A DNA stretch of 62,175 bases, filler included, from an uncultured Methanosarcinales archaeon (GTDB lineage: Archaea; Nanobdellota; Nanobdellia; Woesearchaeales; CAIVOO01), in the NCBI GenBank assembly GCA_964485195.1. It is 7 parts of 7 records of this genome, joined end to end, with 100 filler letters (N's around TTAATTAATTAA, not from the genome) between each part and the next. Parts side by side here need not be neighbours in the genome. Positions count along the whole stretch, not along the records: positions 57,284 to 62,175 come from CAZAIK010000020.1; 6 more parts are not named here. One strand, written 5' to 3'. This document shows, in pieces, positions 56,626-62,175 of the stretch (the first letter of the stretch is position 1; each line of letters begins with the position of its first letter). The translations under genes were made by a program, and so were the position numbers. The notes under the pieces are model-generated. The model was not told where the DNA came from. It worked only from the letters and a program-made list of their open reading frames with translations, and ran no database searches.

Positions 56626-57183
56626 TTATCGACAGCGCCTCCAGTCAGAATCACTGTAGGATTCTTCTAGCTCCTCCCACAATTCCTTGAGATTGACGGT
56701 CATGACAATTAAATCCTGCTTTTTTCCTTCCTGATCCTTAACAAAATCAGGGATAAGAAGTTCCTCGCGAAATCCGAGCTTTCTGAAGATCCGCTGAGCC
56801 CCTTTCTGAGGCCTCATCATCCTGACAACCACCAGCTCCACTTTCTTCTTGACTGCCAGAAAATAGAGCTCTCTCACCATGATGGTCCCAAGGCCTTTTT
56901 TTTGATAAGGTCTGGCTACAATGACTCTTAATTCCCCCTGATGCTTCTGCCAATCTTCTCCGGATAATTCAAGGGCTCCGTCAGCAATGATTTCTCCTTT
57001 ATAAAGGGCAACCAGACGAAAAATCCGGCCCGTTTTTATGAGTTTGATCCTCTTTTTGACAATCTCTTTGTTGGTCACATCTATCCTTAAATATTTTCTG
57101 TCCGCAGGCGGAAGACCTGCGTAAAACTTCATCAATGCATCCAGATCATTTTCATGAAGCTCCCTGATCACAACCTTTTTCCC
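56626..57183 (-). CDS. GNAT family acetyltransferase, 5' end at contig edge
   Basis: IREL...D, V.RPYQKKGLG, F.KLGF..E. Confidence 0.88.
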   Translation of the reverse strand, partial: GKKVVIRELHENDLDALMKFYAGLPPADRKYLRIDVTNKEIVKKRIKLIKTGRIFRLVALYKGEIIADGALELSGEDWQKHQGELRVIVARPYQKKGLGTIMVRELYFLAVKKKVELVVVRMMRPQKGAQRIFRKLGFREELLIPDFVKDQEGKKQDLIVMTVNLKELWEELEESYSDSDWRRCR

Positions 57184-57283: not shown

Positions 57284-57500
57284 TACCTTTAGCATTCCCA
57301 AGAACTAAAATATTTGAAGGAAAAACATAATCACCACCGCCAGCATCAGCGCCGAAAGTCCCAGCCCCTACGCTCTCAGCAGAATGACCAGGATTAGGGA
57401 CTGAGGACTGGGCAAAAGAAAAAGTAATAATAAAGAGAACACAAACAAGTGCTATGACAAAATAAAGATGCCTCTTCTCAACACGGATATGAATGTCCAT
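57284..57500 (-). CDS. N-terminus of a secreted/surface protein, truncated
   Basis: MDIHIRVEKRHLYF-TM-PNPGHSAESV. Confidence 0.6.
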
Positions 57501-57606
57501 ATAAAAGGATAAATTTTTTAAGGAGTTATAAACTTTTTGTCTGTATGATGGGAATAACAGAACCATTTAAGAGTAAATAAAAGAAGGACAAAAAACTTCA
57601 ATATAA

Positions 57607-58352
57607 CTCCGGCCAAAATTTTTAAGAATCCCCCAAAAAAAAGATTTTAAGACGAGCATAGTTAAAGTAAAAGAAATTAAATTAACCTATGAAACAGCAT
57701 ATCTTGCCGGAGTAATAATAGGAGATGGGTATATCTCAAACTCCACTAAATCCAAAACAGACCACTCTGAAGATTATAGGATCGCAATAGAATTATCAGA
57801 CAAGAACCACCTTTTATTTATTTATATCCTGATTCAACAGGTTATTAAAACTAAAAGCAAGCCAAAGGATGTTATTAAAGAAAAGATTAAAAAGAAAGGA
57901 TGCGTTTAGAATTCAAGAACAAAAGTTTTCATTATTCTTTAACAGAGTTCCTTAAAATAAAAAAAGGAGCTAAAAGTGAGATTGTATCTATCCCTTCAAA
58001 AATCAAGGAATCTCCAAATCAGGTTAAAAGGTATTTTTTAGCAGGACTATTTGATAGCGATGGAGGGTTCAGAGGGGAAACACTTGGTTTCACTACAGCA
58101 AGCAAGAGTCTGAATAAAGATACTAGCAGTTTACTCAAAGAATTTTCGATTAAACACAATTTAGACACATGGCTAAATAAGAAACATAACAAAAGGTTTT
58201 ATGGTATTAAACTCAAAAAGTCGGAAATAGGTAAATTTTTAAATACCTTCCCTTTACAAAACAAGGAAAAATTGGTTAGAATATGTCAAAGGTTTAATGC
58301 GGGGATGCCGGAGTGGCCAAACGGGCCAGATTATTCTAATCAATTAGAATGA
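57607..58352 (+). pseudogene. Double-motif LAGLIDADG homing endonuclease, split by a -1 frame change at about 57891-57909 and lacking a canonical start
   Basis: Motif 1 AYLAGVIIGDG (57697-57729, missed by ORF track); motif 2 YFLAGLFDSDG in ORF 57900-58352. Confidence 0.85.
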
Positions 58353-58461
58353 GGCTAGGCTTAGGTGGACCATAGCAAGGTGTACTGAGCTCTTTTTGGG
58401 CTATGATCTTAAGACACCTGGTGGCTTAGTGCCTACGCAGGTTCAAATCCTGCTCCCCGCA
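58299..58461 (+). tRNA. tRNA-Leu(UAG) with two introns (58330-58358 at 30/31; 58366-58415 at 37/38)
   Basis: GCGGGGA/TCCCCGC acceptor, spliced CCAGG-CTTAGGA-CCTGG arm, long variable arm; BHB helices GGCC/GGCT and CTTA/TAAG with 3-nt bulges. Confidence 0.9.
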
Positions 58462-58767
58462 TATATCAAATTCTGAAACCTTCNNNNNNNNNNNNNNNNN
58501 NNNNNNNNNNNNNNNNNNNNNNNNNNNNNNNNNNNNNNNNNNNNNNNNNNNNNNNNNNNNNNNNNNNNNNNNNNNNNNNNNNNGGCAGCAATGCCTTATG
58601 CGCGGTGCCTACGCAGGTTCAAATCCTGCTCCCCGCATATATCAAATTCTGAAACCTTCAAATAACAGCCAGTTTCAGCAAGCAGACCTTGCGTCTGCTA
58701 GTGGGTTGATAAGGCAGCAATGCCTTATGCGCGGTGCCTACGCAGGTTCAAATCCTGCTCCCCGCAT
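58429..58767 (+). repeat. 129-bp tandem repeat containing the tRNA-Leu 3' end; copy number unresolved (scaffold gap 58484-58583)
   Basis: GTGCCTACGCAGGTTCAAATCCTGCTCCCCGCA ends at 58461, 58637 and 58766. Confidence 0.9.
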
Positions 58768-58986
58768 CACCTTTTCTCTTATATTCTTGTTTTAATCAAA
58801 TAAAACTATTTTACTTACGGCGGCCCTTAAAATTCAGGATTTTTGGTTTTGTGCTGGATTGTCAGGACCGCAAAAAAAGCGTTTGAAAGGAAAATTTAAA
58901 TTAATTTCAATATTAAAAATAATTAAAAAACCACCTTTTCAGCGAAATATTTATAAAGAAACAGCCATATAGTTTATCACAATATA

Positions 58987-61900
58987 GTGGTAAAAATGCA
59001 GGAAGGAAATCCTAATTTCAGCGTGTCAGTATTCAGGGCAGGGCCCTACAAGATAGAGCTAGCCCACAAAGGGGAAATTCCGCCAGAATACGGAGTGAAT
59101 GAGGCATACTTTCCAGGAGGGCCTCAGATAACATTAAGGGAAGACAAGCTGGACATGGAATCAACAGGCATCAAAAGCCCCAGTGTCCTGCACTTAAACC
59201 AGCTTACTCTTGCAGAAAAACAATTCAAAGACATACGAAAAGAGCACAATTTCTCACTAATACCCCACGCAGCAAGCTCAATAGACAGGATTGTGGGGAC
59301 AATACTCCAGACAGTCTCGGAAATCTCCCCCAGGTTCGGCTATTACCCCATAAGCTACCTCTCAAGGACACTGGATGTTGACCCCCTGGACTATCTTGAG
59401 CAGGAAAGCCTGAACAGTGACTGGACAGCAAACACCCTGGCATTGCTGAAAACAATGGGCTACTACGAGGTTGAAAAGGACATAGACCCCATAAAGGAAG
59501 ACCTGGATCCAGCACCACAGCAGGAGATAAAAAAAGACACCTCGCGAATAGCAGACCTCGCCAGGCGGACGGGATGTGAAGACAGGATGAGTGAGATAAC
59601 AAGCTTGTTTGAGCAGACAGCGATGATTAACAAGCTGATTTACGATGAAAAAAGCCCTGGAGGCGTGCTGGAAAGGCTAAAAAAGCCAAAGGACGAAAGG
59701 TTCGGCATAGCAAGAGCGGACTTCCAGTTTCCCCTAGAACTTATAGGATGCGCACTGTATGAGAAATTCGGGAAAAATGTTTCAGACAGGTTCTTCAGGG
59801 AATACTTCGTGTTTGACATCTGGGACGAGAAAGACCGCGCCCAGGCAGCCACAAAGGACCTGACAAGCGACCGCGCCAGGAGCGAGACACAAAAGGCCGT
59901 GGAAGAGGCAAAAAAAAGCACAAATGAGTACATTCAGGCAAAGGAAAAGATAACAAGAGAAGTGTCCCAGAGGATAATTGACAAGAACATAAATGACCTG
60001 AGGCTGTTCATAGGAGGGCTTCACTTTTACGAAGACGTATGGCTAATAGACAACAATGAAGCCATTCCTGAACTCGCAAGGTTCTCAGTAGCTGAAGAAA
60101 AAGGAGAAGGCGGAAGAAGGAAACGCAGGTATTTCCTGGAAGACAAGGAAACAGCTCTTGAAGAGCTCACCCAGGAAGAAAGGCTGATAATAGACGCTCT
60201 TGAGAACCTGAGAAAAAAAGGGGACAACAGGGAGATAGGATTTTTTGAAGTGGGAAAGAACCAGTACGGGCTGAAGATAGACTTCAACAGGATAAAGCTT
60301 TTCGCCTCAGGAATAATGCCCACAGAAGAGCTGACAGGGGAAGAGGCAGAAATGCTTCACAAAATGGAAAGGATGATAGAGCAGGAGTTTGAATTCTGCT
60401 ATGAAAAAGAGGAAGGATCTCATTACTCAGTCCACGTGGGCCAGAGGGAAATAGGAGAGGTAACTCTGCCCCGGGGAGTTACACCCGCATACCTCAAGGA
60501 ACTAACACTTTTTGACTTGCTGAAGGACGAAGAAACCGAGCAGGCAGAGGAGGAGATAAAGCGCAACATAGAAGTGCAGGACGCCTGGTACAAGGTTTAC
60601 CAGATGCTCCCGCCCGAGCTAAGGCTTTCTGACGAGGATGCCAGCAAGGTAATGACAGGGGAAGCAACCGAAACTGCCCACAGGGCCTCAATAAGCAAGG
60701 TAAGGTTCCAGAAAGACCCCCGCAACAGGTACGGCGTGAAAAGAAAATTGCGAAGCACGGGGAAAAGCGAGGAGCTGGGAATGATAAGCCTTTCAGGAAA
60801 TTTGGAAGAGCTTGAGGAAAAGCCCCTGGCAGGCATTCACTCCCTTGATGAAATGCAAAAAAGGGAAAGGCTCGAGCTTTCAAGGATGAAATTCTCAGGT
60901 GTTGATTATTTCGCAGAGAACGGCCACGTCTGGGTGACCAGAAAAGCAGGGCTTGACGAACTAATGGAAGGTTTGCATCACGAACTCGGCACTGCAGGCT
61001 CCAAGGTTGACATGAAGCTTGTGAGGATTACCCACCAGGGCAACAGGGAATTCTACGAAAGACTGCTGGAAGCATACCTCAATGACAGGAAGATAAGCCC
61101 GGAAGAGAGAATGCACCTCCTGAAAGAAAGGAAAGAAAAAAATGTTGCCCTGACAAACGATGACATAAGAAGGATGATGCTGCAGGCAAAAGCAACAGCC
61201 CACAGGGGAATATTTGACAGGGTCCAGCACCAGATTGCGGAATACGCAAGGGACGGAGTGCTGGAAGTGCACGAGGACTACGTGATAGAAGACCTCTTCG
61301 TGCCTGTCCTTCGGGGGGAGCAGGTCCCGCAGGACCTTATAAACTTCATCAACAAGAGAAAAAGGCACGCTGTCAGGAAGATAGAGAGAAAGATTCCCGA
61401 GCAGACAGAGCTGCTTGAGCTGATAACAAAAACAGTGATAGGGGGGAAGGGAAGCTTTGAAAACAACAAGGACTATTCCCGGCTGCTCCAGGTAGTCGGG
61501 GACATGACAATGCCCCCTGAGAATAAGGAAGCATACTTCACGGAGATGAGGAACAAGTACAGCACAAGGTTCTTGATGCACCTCACCCAGCTGATAGATG
61601 AAATGCCTGATGTCGGGGAAGATGTTTTTGCAGACAGCTTCTACGCCCATTTTGAGACAAGCAAGGGCAGCCTTGTGAAGAGGATTAAGAAACTGCTTGA
61701 GGACGAGGGAGTCATAGAGCAGGTCAAGGCAGGCTTTGACTCAATAATGGGCCCCTTCGGAGGGATGGAAGAGGAAAAGTTCAAGAAATACGCAAGGGCC
61801 CTGGCCCGACTTCCCAAGGAGGTGAGGGAAAAGGTAAAAGAGAACATGCAGACGCACACAGGCAAGGACCATGTCGGGGGTGAAATTCTCAACTACCTCA

Positions 61901-62154
61901 ACAACGAGCTTCTGACAGAAGAGGCGCTCAACCAGGTTATGAGCTCTGAATCAGTTGAGAAGGCAATGGAAGGAGGGGATGAGGAAGCTGTTGACGACGC
62001 ATTCGCAAGCGCATTCGGAATGGGCCGGTCAGAAAAGCCGGTGGAGCAGGAACTCTACCAAAAGTACAAGGAAAGAGAAGAGAAGATAAAGAAGGAAGGG
62101 GGCATTACAGACCAGGACCTGGAAGACCTCTTCGGAGAGGAGGAAGGGTTTTGA
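58987..62154 (+). CDS. Large acidic, helical hypothetical protein (about 1050 aa)
   Basis: Uninterrupted ORF with purine-rich codon usage like the other archaeal genes, TTTATAAA upstream; no motif recognised. Confidence 0.75.
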   Translation: MVKMQEGNPNFSVSVFRAGPYKIELAHKGEIPPEYGVNEAYFPGGPQITLREDKLDMESTGIKSPSVLHLNQLTLAEKQFKDIRKEHNFSLIPHAASSIDRIVGTILQTVSEISPRFGYYPISYLSRTLDVDPLDYLEQESLNSDWTANTLALLKTMGYYEVEKDIDPIKEDLDPAPQQEIKKDTSRIADLARRTGCEDRMSEITSLFEQTAMINKLIYDEKSPGGVLERLKKPKDERFGIARADFQFPLELIGCALYEKFGKNVSDRFFREYFVFDIWDEKDRAQAATKDLTSDRARSETQKAVEEAKKSTNEYIQAKEKITREVSQRIIDKNINDLRLFIGGLHFYEDVWLIDNNEAIPELARFSVAEEKGEGGRRKRRYFLEDKETALEELTQEERLIIDALENLRKKGDNREIGFFEVGKNQYGLKIDFNRIKLFASGIMPTEELTGEEAEMLHKMERMIEQEFEFCYEKEEGSHYSVHVGQREIGEVTLPRGVTPAYLKELTLFDLLKDEETEQAEEEIKRNIEVQDAWYKVYQMLPPELRLSDEDASKVMTGEATETAHRASISKVRFQKDPRNRYGVKRKLRSTGKSEELGMISLSGNLEELEEKPLAGIHSLDEMQKRERLELSRMKFSGVDYFAENGHVWVTRKAGLDELMEGLHHELGTAGSKVDMKLVRITHQGNREFYERLLEAYLNDRKISPEERMHLLKERKEKNVALTNDDIRRMMLQAKATAHRGIFDRVQHQIAEYARDGVLEVHEDYVIEDLFVPVLRGEQVPQDLINFINKRKRHAVRKIERKIPEQTELLELITKTVIGGKGSFENNKDYSRLLQVVGDMTMPPENKEAYFTEMRNKYSTRFLMHLTQLIDEMPDVGEDVFADSFYAHFETSKGSLVKRIKKLLEDEGVIEQVKAGFDSIMGPFGGMEEEKFKKYARALARLPKEVREKVKENMQTHTGKDHVGGEILNYLNNELLTEEALNQVMSSESVEKAMEGGDEEAVDDAFASAFGMGRSEKPVEQELYQKYKEREEKIKKEGGITDQDLEDLFGEEEGF

Positions 62155-62175
62155 TTACCATCGTCAGCGTATGCC

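Follow-up and report, generated by a model that had tools for sequence, protein, structure and literature searches.

A candidate homing cassette: LAGLIDADG endonuclease genes joined to tRNA-Leu(UAG) genes with a 30/31 intron in DPANN archaea

In a 62,175-nt stretch of DNA from an uncultured archaeon (assembly GCA_964485195.1; hereafter the window), a decayed gene for a LAGLIDADG homing endonuclease runs directly into a tRNA-Leu(UAG) gene that is interrupted by an intron between positions 30 and 31. Relatives of this gene adjoin the same tRNA gene in other DPANN archaea, and their presence goes together with that of the 30/31 intron. We consider it probable, though well short of certain, that the window holds a decayed mobile homing-endonuclease cassette specific for tRNA-Leu(UAG) of Woesearchaeota-type DPANN archaea, in which the intron would protect the carrier and which would spread by cutting and repair. 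The window consists of chained contigs of a draft genome (1.126 Mb in 32 contigs, 99.5% complete) joined by spacers of the form N44-TTAATTAATTAA-N44, and the locus lies on a single scaffold of 4892 bp (C20; window positions 57284-62175) with a 100-N gap at 58484-58583.

Results

A decayed endonuclease gene overlaps a tRNA-Leu(UAG) gene

A two-motif LAGLIDADG frame running through the 5' exon of a tRNA-Leu had been described in an earlier note on this DNA, and we find such a frame at 57652-58352, where it covers the first 31 nt of the tRNA gene (features in the window are on the plus strand unless stated otherwise). The start position proposed at the time, 57607, proved to be only the first codon past an upstream stop. 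The gene is carried in two pieces. Frame A (57607-57906) contains motif 1, LAGVIIGDG, at 57703-57729, and frame B (57900-58352, 150 aa) contains motif 2, LAGLFDSDGG, at 58038-58067; the family is thus of the single-chain kind, with two LAGLIDADG motifs that each end in an acidic residue. Pfam family PF14528 matches piece B with an E value of 4.5e-10 and piece A with 0.047.

Frame A has no ATG, GTG or TTG before motif 1. At 57652, where relatives begin with M-N-I-V-K, the window reads ACG-AGC-ATA-GTT-AAA, so that ACG replaces ATG. One frameshift falls in an A-rich run at 57886-57899, with piece A departing from the family alignment after ..KPKDVI and piece B entering it at ..RLEFKNKS. Because it lacks a start codon and carries this frameshift, the window copy is a pseudogene, with its N-terminal part at 57652-57890 (frame A) and its C-terminal part at 57891-58352 (frame B), and the endonuclease it once encoded is dead. 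Both lesions are reproduced in contigs from two public DNA runs (one study, possibly of the source sample), which show zero differences from the window over 57447-58458; no endonuclease-free joint or variant was seen in the contigs of these two runs.

The tRNA gene occupies 58299-58461 and matches the Rfam tRNA model with 36.8 bits (gathering score 29) and an 84-nt insertion. Reading the stems by hand, we assign exon 1 to 58299-58329, exon 2 to 58359-58365 (GCTTAGG, with the anticodon UAG) and exon 3 to 58416-58461. They are separated by a 29-nt intron of the bulge-helix type between positions 30 and 31 (intron 1, 58330-58358) and by a 50-nt intron at the canonical 37/38 site (intron 2, 58366-58415). 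The stems comprise an acceptor stem of 7 bp, a D stem of 3 bp, an anticodon stem CCAGG/CCTGG, a T stem GCAGG/CCTGC and a variable arm GGC/GCC, and once the introns are removed the gene has the long variable arm and UAG anticodon of tRNA-Leu(UAG). Folding the joined exons for minimum energy yields the acceptor stem without the complete cloverleaf. ARAGORN called no tRNA here by default and, with its intron option, a Val(tac) with an 81-nt intron, a call that we rejected as incorrect against the Rfam match and the hand-read stems. Unlike the enzyme gene, the tRNA-Leu(UAG) looks intact.

Frame B reads exon 1 as AGMPEWPNGP (58299-58328) and ends at a TGA (58350-58352) within intron 1, both as the earlier note had stated. 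A functional role for a stop codon in the intron was considered and rejected: the stop lies in intron 1 at 23 of 38 loci, beyond it at 11, before the tRNA at 2 and in exon 1 at 2, and the frame varies.

An endonuclease family tied to tRNA-Leu(UAG)

A protein search returned 17 full-length or near-full-length homologues (197-238 aa, 46-63% identity), every one of which ends inside the 5' end of a tRNA-Leu. They enter it in two frames, giving ..AG[MV]PEW.NG.. or, one base over, ..CGDAGVAKRD.., and since the tail differs in frame between relatives it is tRNA sequence and no conserved peptide. Taking one genome per species, we collected 43 loci at which a relative reaches 34% identity or more, labelled Woesearchaeota or Nanoarchaeota, many of them bearing the doubtful label 'Methanosarcinales'. 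The 5' end of a tRNA-Leu lies -53 to +17 nt from the end of the protein match in 42 of the 43, the exception being a Micrarchaeota locus, and the UAG anticodon is visible in 41 of those 42, with L021 cut by a contig end. This juxtaposition is far beyond chance. Most of the genes are intact, with frames of 207-268 aa in 39 of 42 relatives (L023 and L040 are broken, L024 is cut by a contig end), and the catalytic-type GDG and DxDGG columns are invariant in all 16 aligned proteins. In a library of 1.84 billion proteins the family profile has 591 representatives at E<=1e-10, 56 of them at E<=1e-30; among solved structures it comes closest to I-DmoI (E 7.8e-8, first domain only).

The endonuclease occurs only at the UAG isoacceptor, though the genome's tRNA-Leu(CAA) has the identical acceptor stem and D arm. 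This suggests that the enzyme recognises sequence beyond position 30, with a target that would extend into the anticodon stem-loop, past the point where the intron breaks the sequence.

For a wider check we picked 20 weaker matches from the order sample described below (E 1.7e-23 to 5.2e-14), chosen for short frames of 215-288 aa and thus not random. Each of the 20 (L120-L139) runs up to or into a tRNA gene: 13 meet its 5' end and share its strand, and 7 meet its 3' end from the opposite strand. A program supports the tRNA in 15 of the 20 (Rfam in 6, ARAGORN in 13, an acceptor/T-arm script in 9), and 5 were recognised by eye; Rfam finds the tRNA at only 6 of the 20, and the multi-intron tRNAs needed ARAGORN, the script or the eye. 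The tRNAs at these distant genes vary, with ARAGORN calls that include Thr, Lys, Leu(UAA) and Asn; L138 and L139 both adjoin a Thr(GGU). Many of the tRNAs at L120-L139 have T-loop or D-loop introns. Separately, downstream of an intron-less tRNA-Leu(UAG) in the genome G146 (locus L107), at a distance of about 400 nt and on the opposite strand, lies a different LAGLIDADG-like frame (E 1e-7, 32% identity over 129 aa), possibly a cassette on the 3' side of this same tRNA.

Patchy presence and an empty site in the same genus

In order to assess how widely the gene is distributed, we used an even set of 401 genomes of the order (the order sample). Close orthologues (E<=1e-60) are present in 13 of them, in 13 different families; 33 weak protein matches of this search are not among the matches listed. 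A second genome of the window's own genus, G184 (locus L111), is without the endonuclease gene, while its flanking genes are syntenic with those of the window on both sides. Window positions 57432-57538 align to a G184 stretch that ends 9 nt before the tRNA-Leu(UAG) of that genome, the shared sequence running up to ...TGTAT. In G184 the tRNA follows directly after ..GGTTATAAACTTTTTCCTTGTAT; in the window the homologous ..GAGTTATAAACTTTTTGTCTGTAT, ending near 57547, is followed by about 750 bp and only then by the tRNA. Relative to this empty site the insert, leaving aside its tRNA part, spans 57548-58298. In a quick tree the window copy groups with L012, from another family, with 88 in the Shimodaira-Hasegawa-like approximate likelihood ratio test. 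An empty site, a patchy spread and this grouping make up the pattern expected of a mobile insert.

The two introns of the tRNA differ in their relationships within the genus. Intron 2 and the exons align to G184 at 81-90% identity, and intron 2 with the stretch of 3' exon that follows it is 81% identical, so that intron 2 is homologous between the two genomes. Intron 1 does not align to G184; with its ..ATTCTAATCA.. it resembles the introns of related cassettes (L011-L017 and G103).

The 30/31 intron accompanies the endonuclease gene at most loci

The earlier note proposed a survey of LAGLIDADG genes that adjoin tRNA genes for an association with introns, and that association is found: 38 of 41 evaluable carrier loci have a 30/31 intron. 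For alleles in the order sample at large we used a pattern in which an exact D-arm motif is followed by CTTAGG at 5-35 nt (192 matches, 150 of them listed) or at 36-66 nt (15 matches, of which 13 are true 30/31 introns). Among the matches listed, 128 alleles are intron-less at 30/31 and 35 bear the intron; the gene or a remnant of it adjoins 12 of the 35 and, by comparison with the protein matches listed, none of the 128 (Fisher p ~2e-9, with kin not independent). The 12 are G000, G224, G362, G215, G103, G034, G296, G168, G016, the remnants in G229 and G361, and G163, whose two parts lie on different contig ends and without which there are 11. Comparing, within families, a carrier that has the intron with an endonuclease-free genome that lacks it, all 7 available contrasts agree (p 0.016; families f1, f14, f33, f53, f61, f68 and f91). 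Among 30 fetched loci, none of the 25 intron-less alleles has an upstream remnant beyond the trivial tRNA-coded tail. These tallies include three unpublished genomes, G245 (intron, no gene), G274 (= L108) and G210 (both intron-less); leaving them out gives 12/34, 0/126 and 0/24, and none of the conclusions depends on these genomes.

The intron has a conserved structure. In 40 alleles, a helix joins tRNA positions 25-28 to four intron bases, those just ahead of the final two, and 160 of 160 cells are paired, with compensatory pair types (AC or AT with GT, CC or CT with GG, CA with TG, GT with GC). Shifting the register leaves 16-91 of 160 pairs, and none of 1000 partner shuffles reaches 160 (maximum 149). 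In 33 of the 40 an inner hairpin begins after exactly one intron base and ends directly at the helix, leaving N29, G30 and the first intron base as a 3-nt bulge. Intron 1 of the window conforms to this arrangement, with a 4-bp helix between tRNA 25-28 and the 3' end of the intron, a 3-nt bulge of A29, G30 and the first intron nucleotide, and an inner hairpin of 9 bp. No outer helix was found at the second splice site, where 2 nt and G31 follow the helix. This geometry, as predicted from pairing, is a relaxed helix-bulge-helix form of archaeal splicing substrates.

A TATA-like box conserved inside the coding sequence

A tRNA gene whose 5' end is overlapped by another gene would need its promoter within that gene, and the earlier note had pointed to TTTTTAAATA at 58236-58245, 63 nt before the tRNA 5' end and in the codons for F-L-N. 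Nucleotide conservation supports this proposal. The box TTTTTAA[AG] (TTTTTAAA) is found in 32 of 35 loci at the F-L-[K/N] site, 48-72 nt before the tRNA. The leucine codon at the box is TTA in 32 of 34 genes, compared with 39% of all leucine codons in these genes (binomial p ~3e-11), and TTA makes up 6/21, 11/23 and 5/22 at three other conserved leucine sites. Conservation of the DNA thus exceeds the demands of the protein, which is what a TATA box within a gene should show, and the box is probably a substitute TATA box for the tRNA. The window also retains what would be the original promoter element, since alignment to G184 identifies a TATA-like box, TTATAAA, at 57526-57532, now about 770 nt from the tRNA. 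The endonuclease gene may have had a promoter of its own in AATTTTTAAGAAT (57617-57629), 23-35 nt ahead of the former start codon.

Displaced tRNA 5' fragments suggest an insertion within the tRNA gene

The earlier note regarded the endonuclease gene as free-standing, outside any intron or intein. It does lie outside the intron; rather than simply standing upstream, however, it appears to be inserted in the tRNA gene as part of a cassette, with an old tRNA 5' fragment on its far side at some loci. We aligned the 350 nt upstream of each endonuclease gene locally to its own tRNA and compared the scores with those of 100 shuffles. A fragment of the own tRNA that begins at position 1 and scores above all 100 shuffles is present at 8 of 41 loci (L012, L014, L016, L019, L020, L022, L034 and L036), distributed over several subclades of the main clade. 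In L019, L020, L022 and L034 it follows directly after a TATA-like box. Where the 3' end is clear the fragment stops at ..CAAA or ..CAAG, near position 22 (L014, L016 and L022, and, after a D-loop insertion, L019 and L020). The displaced fragments therefore indicate that the cassette was inserted in the tRNA gene at about 22/23 and brought a substitute 5' part. Two candidates noticed by eye in the window, GATGGGAAT from 57548 (where the tRNA of G184 begins) and CCGGCCAAAA at 57610-57619, are not counted as evidence, the fragment score there not being significant.

Some of the old fragments have a D-loop interruption of 15-37 nt: L012 (128-195), L036 (2703-2770), L019 (2925-2960) and L020 (226-255), with part of GCCGGAG repeated on both sides of it in L012 and L036. 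Either an older intron or the scar left by a previous cassette could account for these interruptions.

Downstream repeats and genomic neighbourhood

Behind the tRNA-Leu(UAG), tandem units without open reading frames occupy 58462-58767, with the gap at 58484-58583 inside them, and each ends in a copy of the last 33 nt of the tRNA. These copies lie at 58605-58637 and 58734-58766, the tRNA's own stretch beginning at 58429. The 129-nt unit has a conserved stretch, CTGAAACCTTCAAATAACAGCCAGTTTCAG, and a hairpin in GTTGATAAGG-loop-CCTTATGCG, followed by the 33-nt copy. A like module stands behind the tRNA-Leu(CAA) of the same genome (G000 contig C1, ~103923-104250, minus strand), where the copy includes the T-loop intron of that tRNA, and the modules at both Leu tRNAs end in assembly gaps. 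We rejected the idea that the downstream copies are the 3' half of a split tRNA, no complementary 5' partner being present in the genome.

The hairpin module, GTTGATAAGG..CTTATGCG, occurs in 9 of the 401 order genomes at 13 places with covarying hairpin arms (loci L140-L152, in G279, G016, G337, G398, G264, G312, G207 and G263), and forms an array with a period of 119 in G263. In 10 of the 11 contexts read, it has a tRNA gene on one side and a partial copy of that tRNA's end on the other, or else precedes a whole tRNA. It was not found at the 20 more distant endonuclease loci. The tandem units are an element separate from the endonuclease cassette, and the module is perhaps a small structured RNA, or else a cassette in miniature that supplies a substitute tRNA end. 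Second copies of a tRNA 3' end (at least 12 nt, some with the flank that follows) also lie 60-130 nt behind the tRNA in L015, L017, L025, L026, L033 and L034.

The locus is flanked by a gene for a surface-type protein upstream (minus strand) and a 1055-aa frame downstream. Because scaffold C20 begins at 57284, genes before that position are no neighbours of the locus; an acetyltransferase-like frame at 56626-57171 belongs to another contig. At 57447-57481, other contigs in both DNA runs match just these 35 nt (with one difference) and then diverge as short branches, which could stem from a paralogue of the upstream gene or from its counterpart in another strain. Contigs C1 and C10, which are not part of the window, contain the genome's other LAGLIDADG domains. 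Their open frames measure 590-1224 aa, and these domains are probably inteins; the C20 copy is the sole short one.

Discussion

How the cassette might work

We propose that the cassette consists of a single-chain LAGLIDADG gene, a TATA box in its last 60-70 nt, substitute tRNA positions 1-30 and a bulge-helix intron at 30/31. On insertion the original tRNA 5' piece (positions 1 to ~22) would be pushed upstream, where it would decay. The enzyme would cut intron-less tRNA-Leu(UAG) between the D stem and the anticodon loop, at about positions 23-30; the cut is expected there because the end of the old fragment (~22) and the 30/31 interruption would be the ends of the two homology arms in break repair. 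The old fragment would hold just the left part of the target site. A working tRNA copy would rebuild the whole site, and the 30/31 intron would split it, so that the carrier would be protected. If the repair pairs on the left with the old fragment, the cassette would be copied; if it pairs with the substitute 5' part, the intron alone would be copied. The two 5' copies would moreover form direct repeats, and recombination between them (or decay) could delete the gene and leave an immune, intron-bearing tRNA. Intron-only repair and gene deletion would together yield many intron-bearing alleles without the gene. The sequence comparison predicts cleavage, a cut site, immunity and a direction of spread, and intron-as-immunity with co-spread stands as a supported but unproven idea.

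Several observations weigh against this reading. The window shows no detectable remnant of an old 5' part (its best score is 9, and shuffles reach 11), and 33 of the 41 loci, the window included, are without one. The acceptor stem and D arm of exon 1 are identical to those of the genome's own tRNA-Leu(CAA) and give no sign of a foreign origin. Three intact relatives adjoin alleles without a 30/31 intron, L046 with an intron of the 37/38 type only and L047 and L052 with none, and the three lie in different subclades beside intron-bearing sisters. These carriers speak against a strict rule of intron protection. L047 and L052 have changed D-stem pairs close to the junction (10:25 T:A and 12:23 A:T), changes that might protect in place of the intron. 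Finally, 23 of the 35 intron-bearing alleles among the matches listed are without an endonuclease gene; the intron therefore persists, and could arise, without the endonuclease.

Alternative explanations

It is unlikely, though a serious contender, that the endonuclease simply homes to the 5' flank of tRNA-Leu(UAG) and that the 30/31 intron is unrelated, with protection coming from the insertion or from base changes and the association from shared descent or a hot spot. The three carriers without an intron fit this explanation, as do the 23 intron-bearing alleles without a gene, given that kin are not independent. It fits poorly with the absence of the gene from all 128 intron-less alleles among the matches listed, the agreement of all seven within-family contrasts and the occurrence of carriers in 13 families. 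In addition, the substitute 5' end would restore the full target unless something else breaks it, and two genomes of a single genus share intron 2 but differ in intron 1.

Domestication of the LAGLIDADG protein, for example as a helper in the processing or expression of a multi-intron tRNA that is kept beside its client, strikes us as improbable. LAGLIDADG maturases are known for group I introns, 39 of 42 copies are intact, and the linkage is tight and conserved, including the promoter within the gene. A helper of this kind is hard to reconcile with close orthologues in only 13 of 401 genomes, with catalytic-type acidic residues that are invariant, and with a tRNA and introns that persist where the gene is dead or gone, as in the window, G103, L023 and L040, in G229 and G361, which have remnants, and in G184, which has none.

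Slightly less credible still is the scar of an integrase-type element that integrated in the tRNA gene with an intron carried in its own attachment site (attP), as proposed for a tRNA-Thr of Caldiarchaeum. The outcome would be alike, with a tRNA 5' fragment, an insert and a rebuilt tRNA with an intron (PMC3293823), and in the window duplicates of a tRNA end also occur downstream. The ~750-bp insert, however, codes for the LAGLIDADG protein only, with LAGLIDADG families alone standing out among the Pfam matches, no integrase family among them, and no other frame of at least 60 aa, and the same single gene is present at 42 loci. That an ordinary open frame happens to run into a tRNA gene has next to no probability: the tRNA-read tail does fall in different frames among relatives, but the counts (42 of 43 loci, and all 20 picked distant LAGLIDADG genes at some tRNA gene) contradict it.

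Relation to known systems

The anatomy of the cassette recalls, in different respects, several known elements. I-DmoI, encoded in an intron of archaeal 23S rRNA, likewise has two motifs in one chain, and its sequence similarity to the present family is weak. I-DmoI lies inside the intron that it mobilises, whereas the family described here lies outside the intron and against a tRNA gene.

Collaborative, or trans, homing is described for phages, with F-CphI beside the psbA intron of cyanophage S-PM2 and mobE of T4 with the defunct I-TevIII intron (PMC6083498, PMC2790892). In these systems the endonuclease gene reportedly lies outside the intron and adjoins a gene with an intron that has no open reading frame, as here, and the proposed logic is the same: the intron-less allele is cut, the intron protects and both travel together. 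The present case differs in its LAGLIDADG enzyme, its cellular archaeal host and its tRNA target. The phage intron is moreover a ribozyme, whereas the intron here is a presumably protein-spliced bulge-helix intron of ~20-35 nt. A further difference from the phage systems is that the present cassette also replaces the 5' end and promoter of the gene.

Fungal mitochondria provide a second parallel in the mobile open reading frames (mORFs) that come with a substitute gene end, in atp6 of Allomyces and in atp6, atp9, cox2 and nad3 of Glomus (PMC3630166). There a LAGLIDADG frame enters a gene together with a duplicate of the gene's end, which keeps the gene complete while the native end persists as a fragment. 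The mORFs carry the C-terminal coding end of protein genes, whereas the archaeal cassette carries a tRNA 5' end and promoter, with an intron; and in our loci the mORF-type duplicate, the old fragment, occurs in only 8 of 41 relatives and not in the window.

The third parallel is the disruption of a tRNA-Thr of Caldiarchaeum subterraneum by a mobile element (Sugahara et al. 2012; PMC3293823), a paper that also cites the idea that introns shield tRNA genes from integrating elements. That model, too, has a 5' fragment, an insert and a rebuilt tRNA with an intron, and has the intron come from the mobile element and block re-invasion. It invokes a pNOB8-type integrase and attachment (att) sites, whereas here there is a lone homing endonuclease, and spread would be by break repair. 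We read the finding as a variation on two known themes, collaborative homing and the homing cassette that brings its own substitute gene end, in a new setting with a bearing on where archaeal tRNA introns come from. Titles and abstract openings of openly licensed papers in PMC and bioRxiv gave no description of LAGLIDADG genes against archaeal tRNA genes.

Implications

The question touched upon is the origin of introns at unusual positions in archaeal tRNA genes, and with it the reason for the fragmented tRNAs of DPANN archaea and Thermoproteales. Published ideas on tRNA introns invoke integrating viruses and plasmids or an unexplained transposition of introns; here there is a concrete pair of enzyme and target. 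The design is compact, in that the cassette would keep an essential tRNA working through a new 5' end and a promoter hidden in coding sequence. Intact relatives, together with natural alleles that are intron-less, intron-bearing or variant in the D stem, make the idea of the intron as immunity directly testable in vitro, and enzymes of the family could serve as a natural set of nucleases with specificities for tRNA genes.

A broader proposal, which we put forward tentatively and regard as doubtful on balance, is that homing-endonuclease cassettes are a main source of the non-canonical bulge-helix introns in DPANN tRNAs. Each lineage would be tied to one tRNA and bring a substitute gene end, a promoter and an intron that splits the target, and, acting in trans, would spread the intron more often than itself. 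If this is true, many orphan tRNA introns would be the immunity scars of past invasions.

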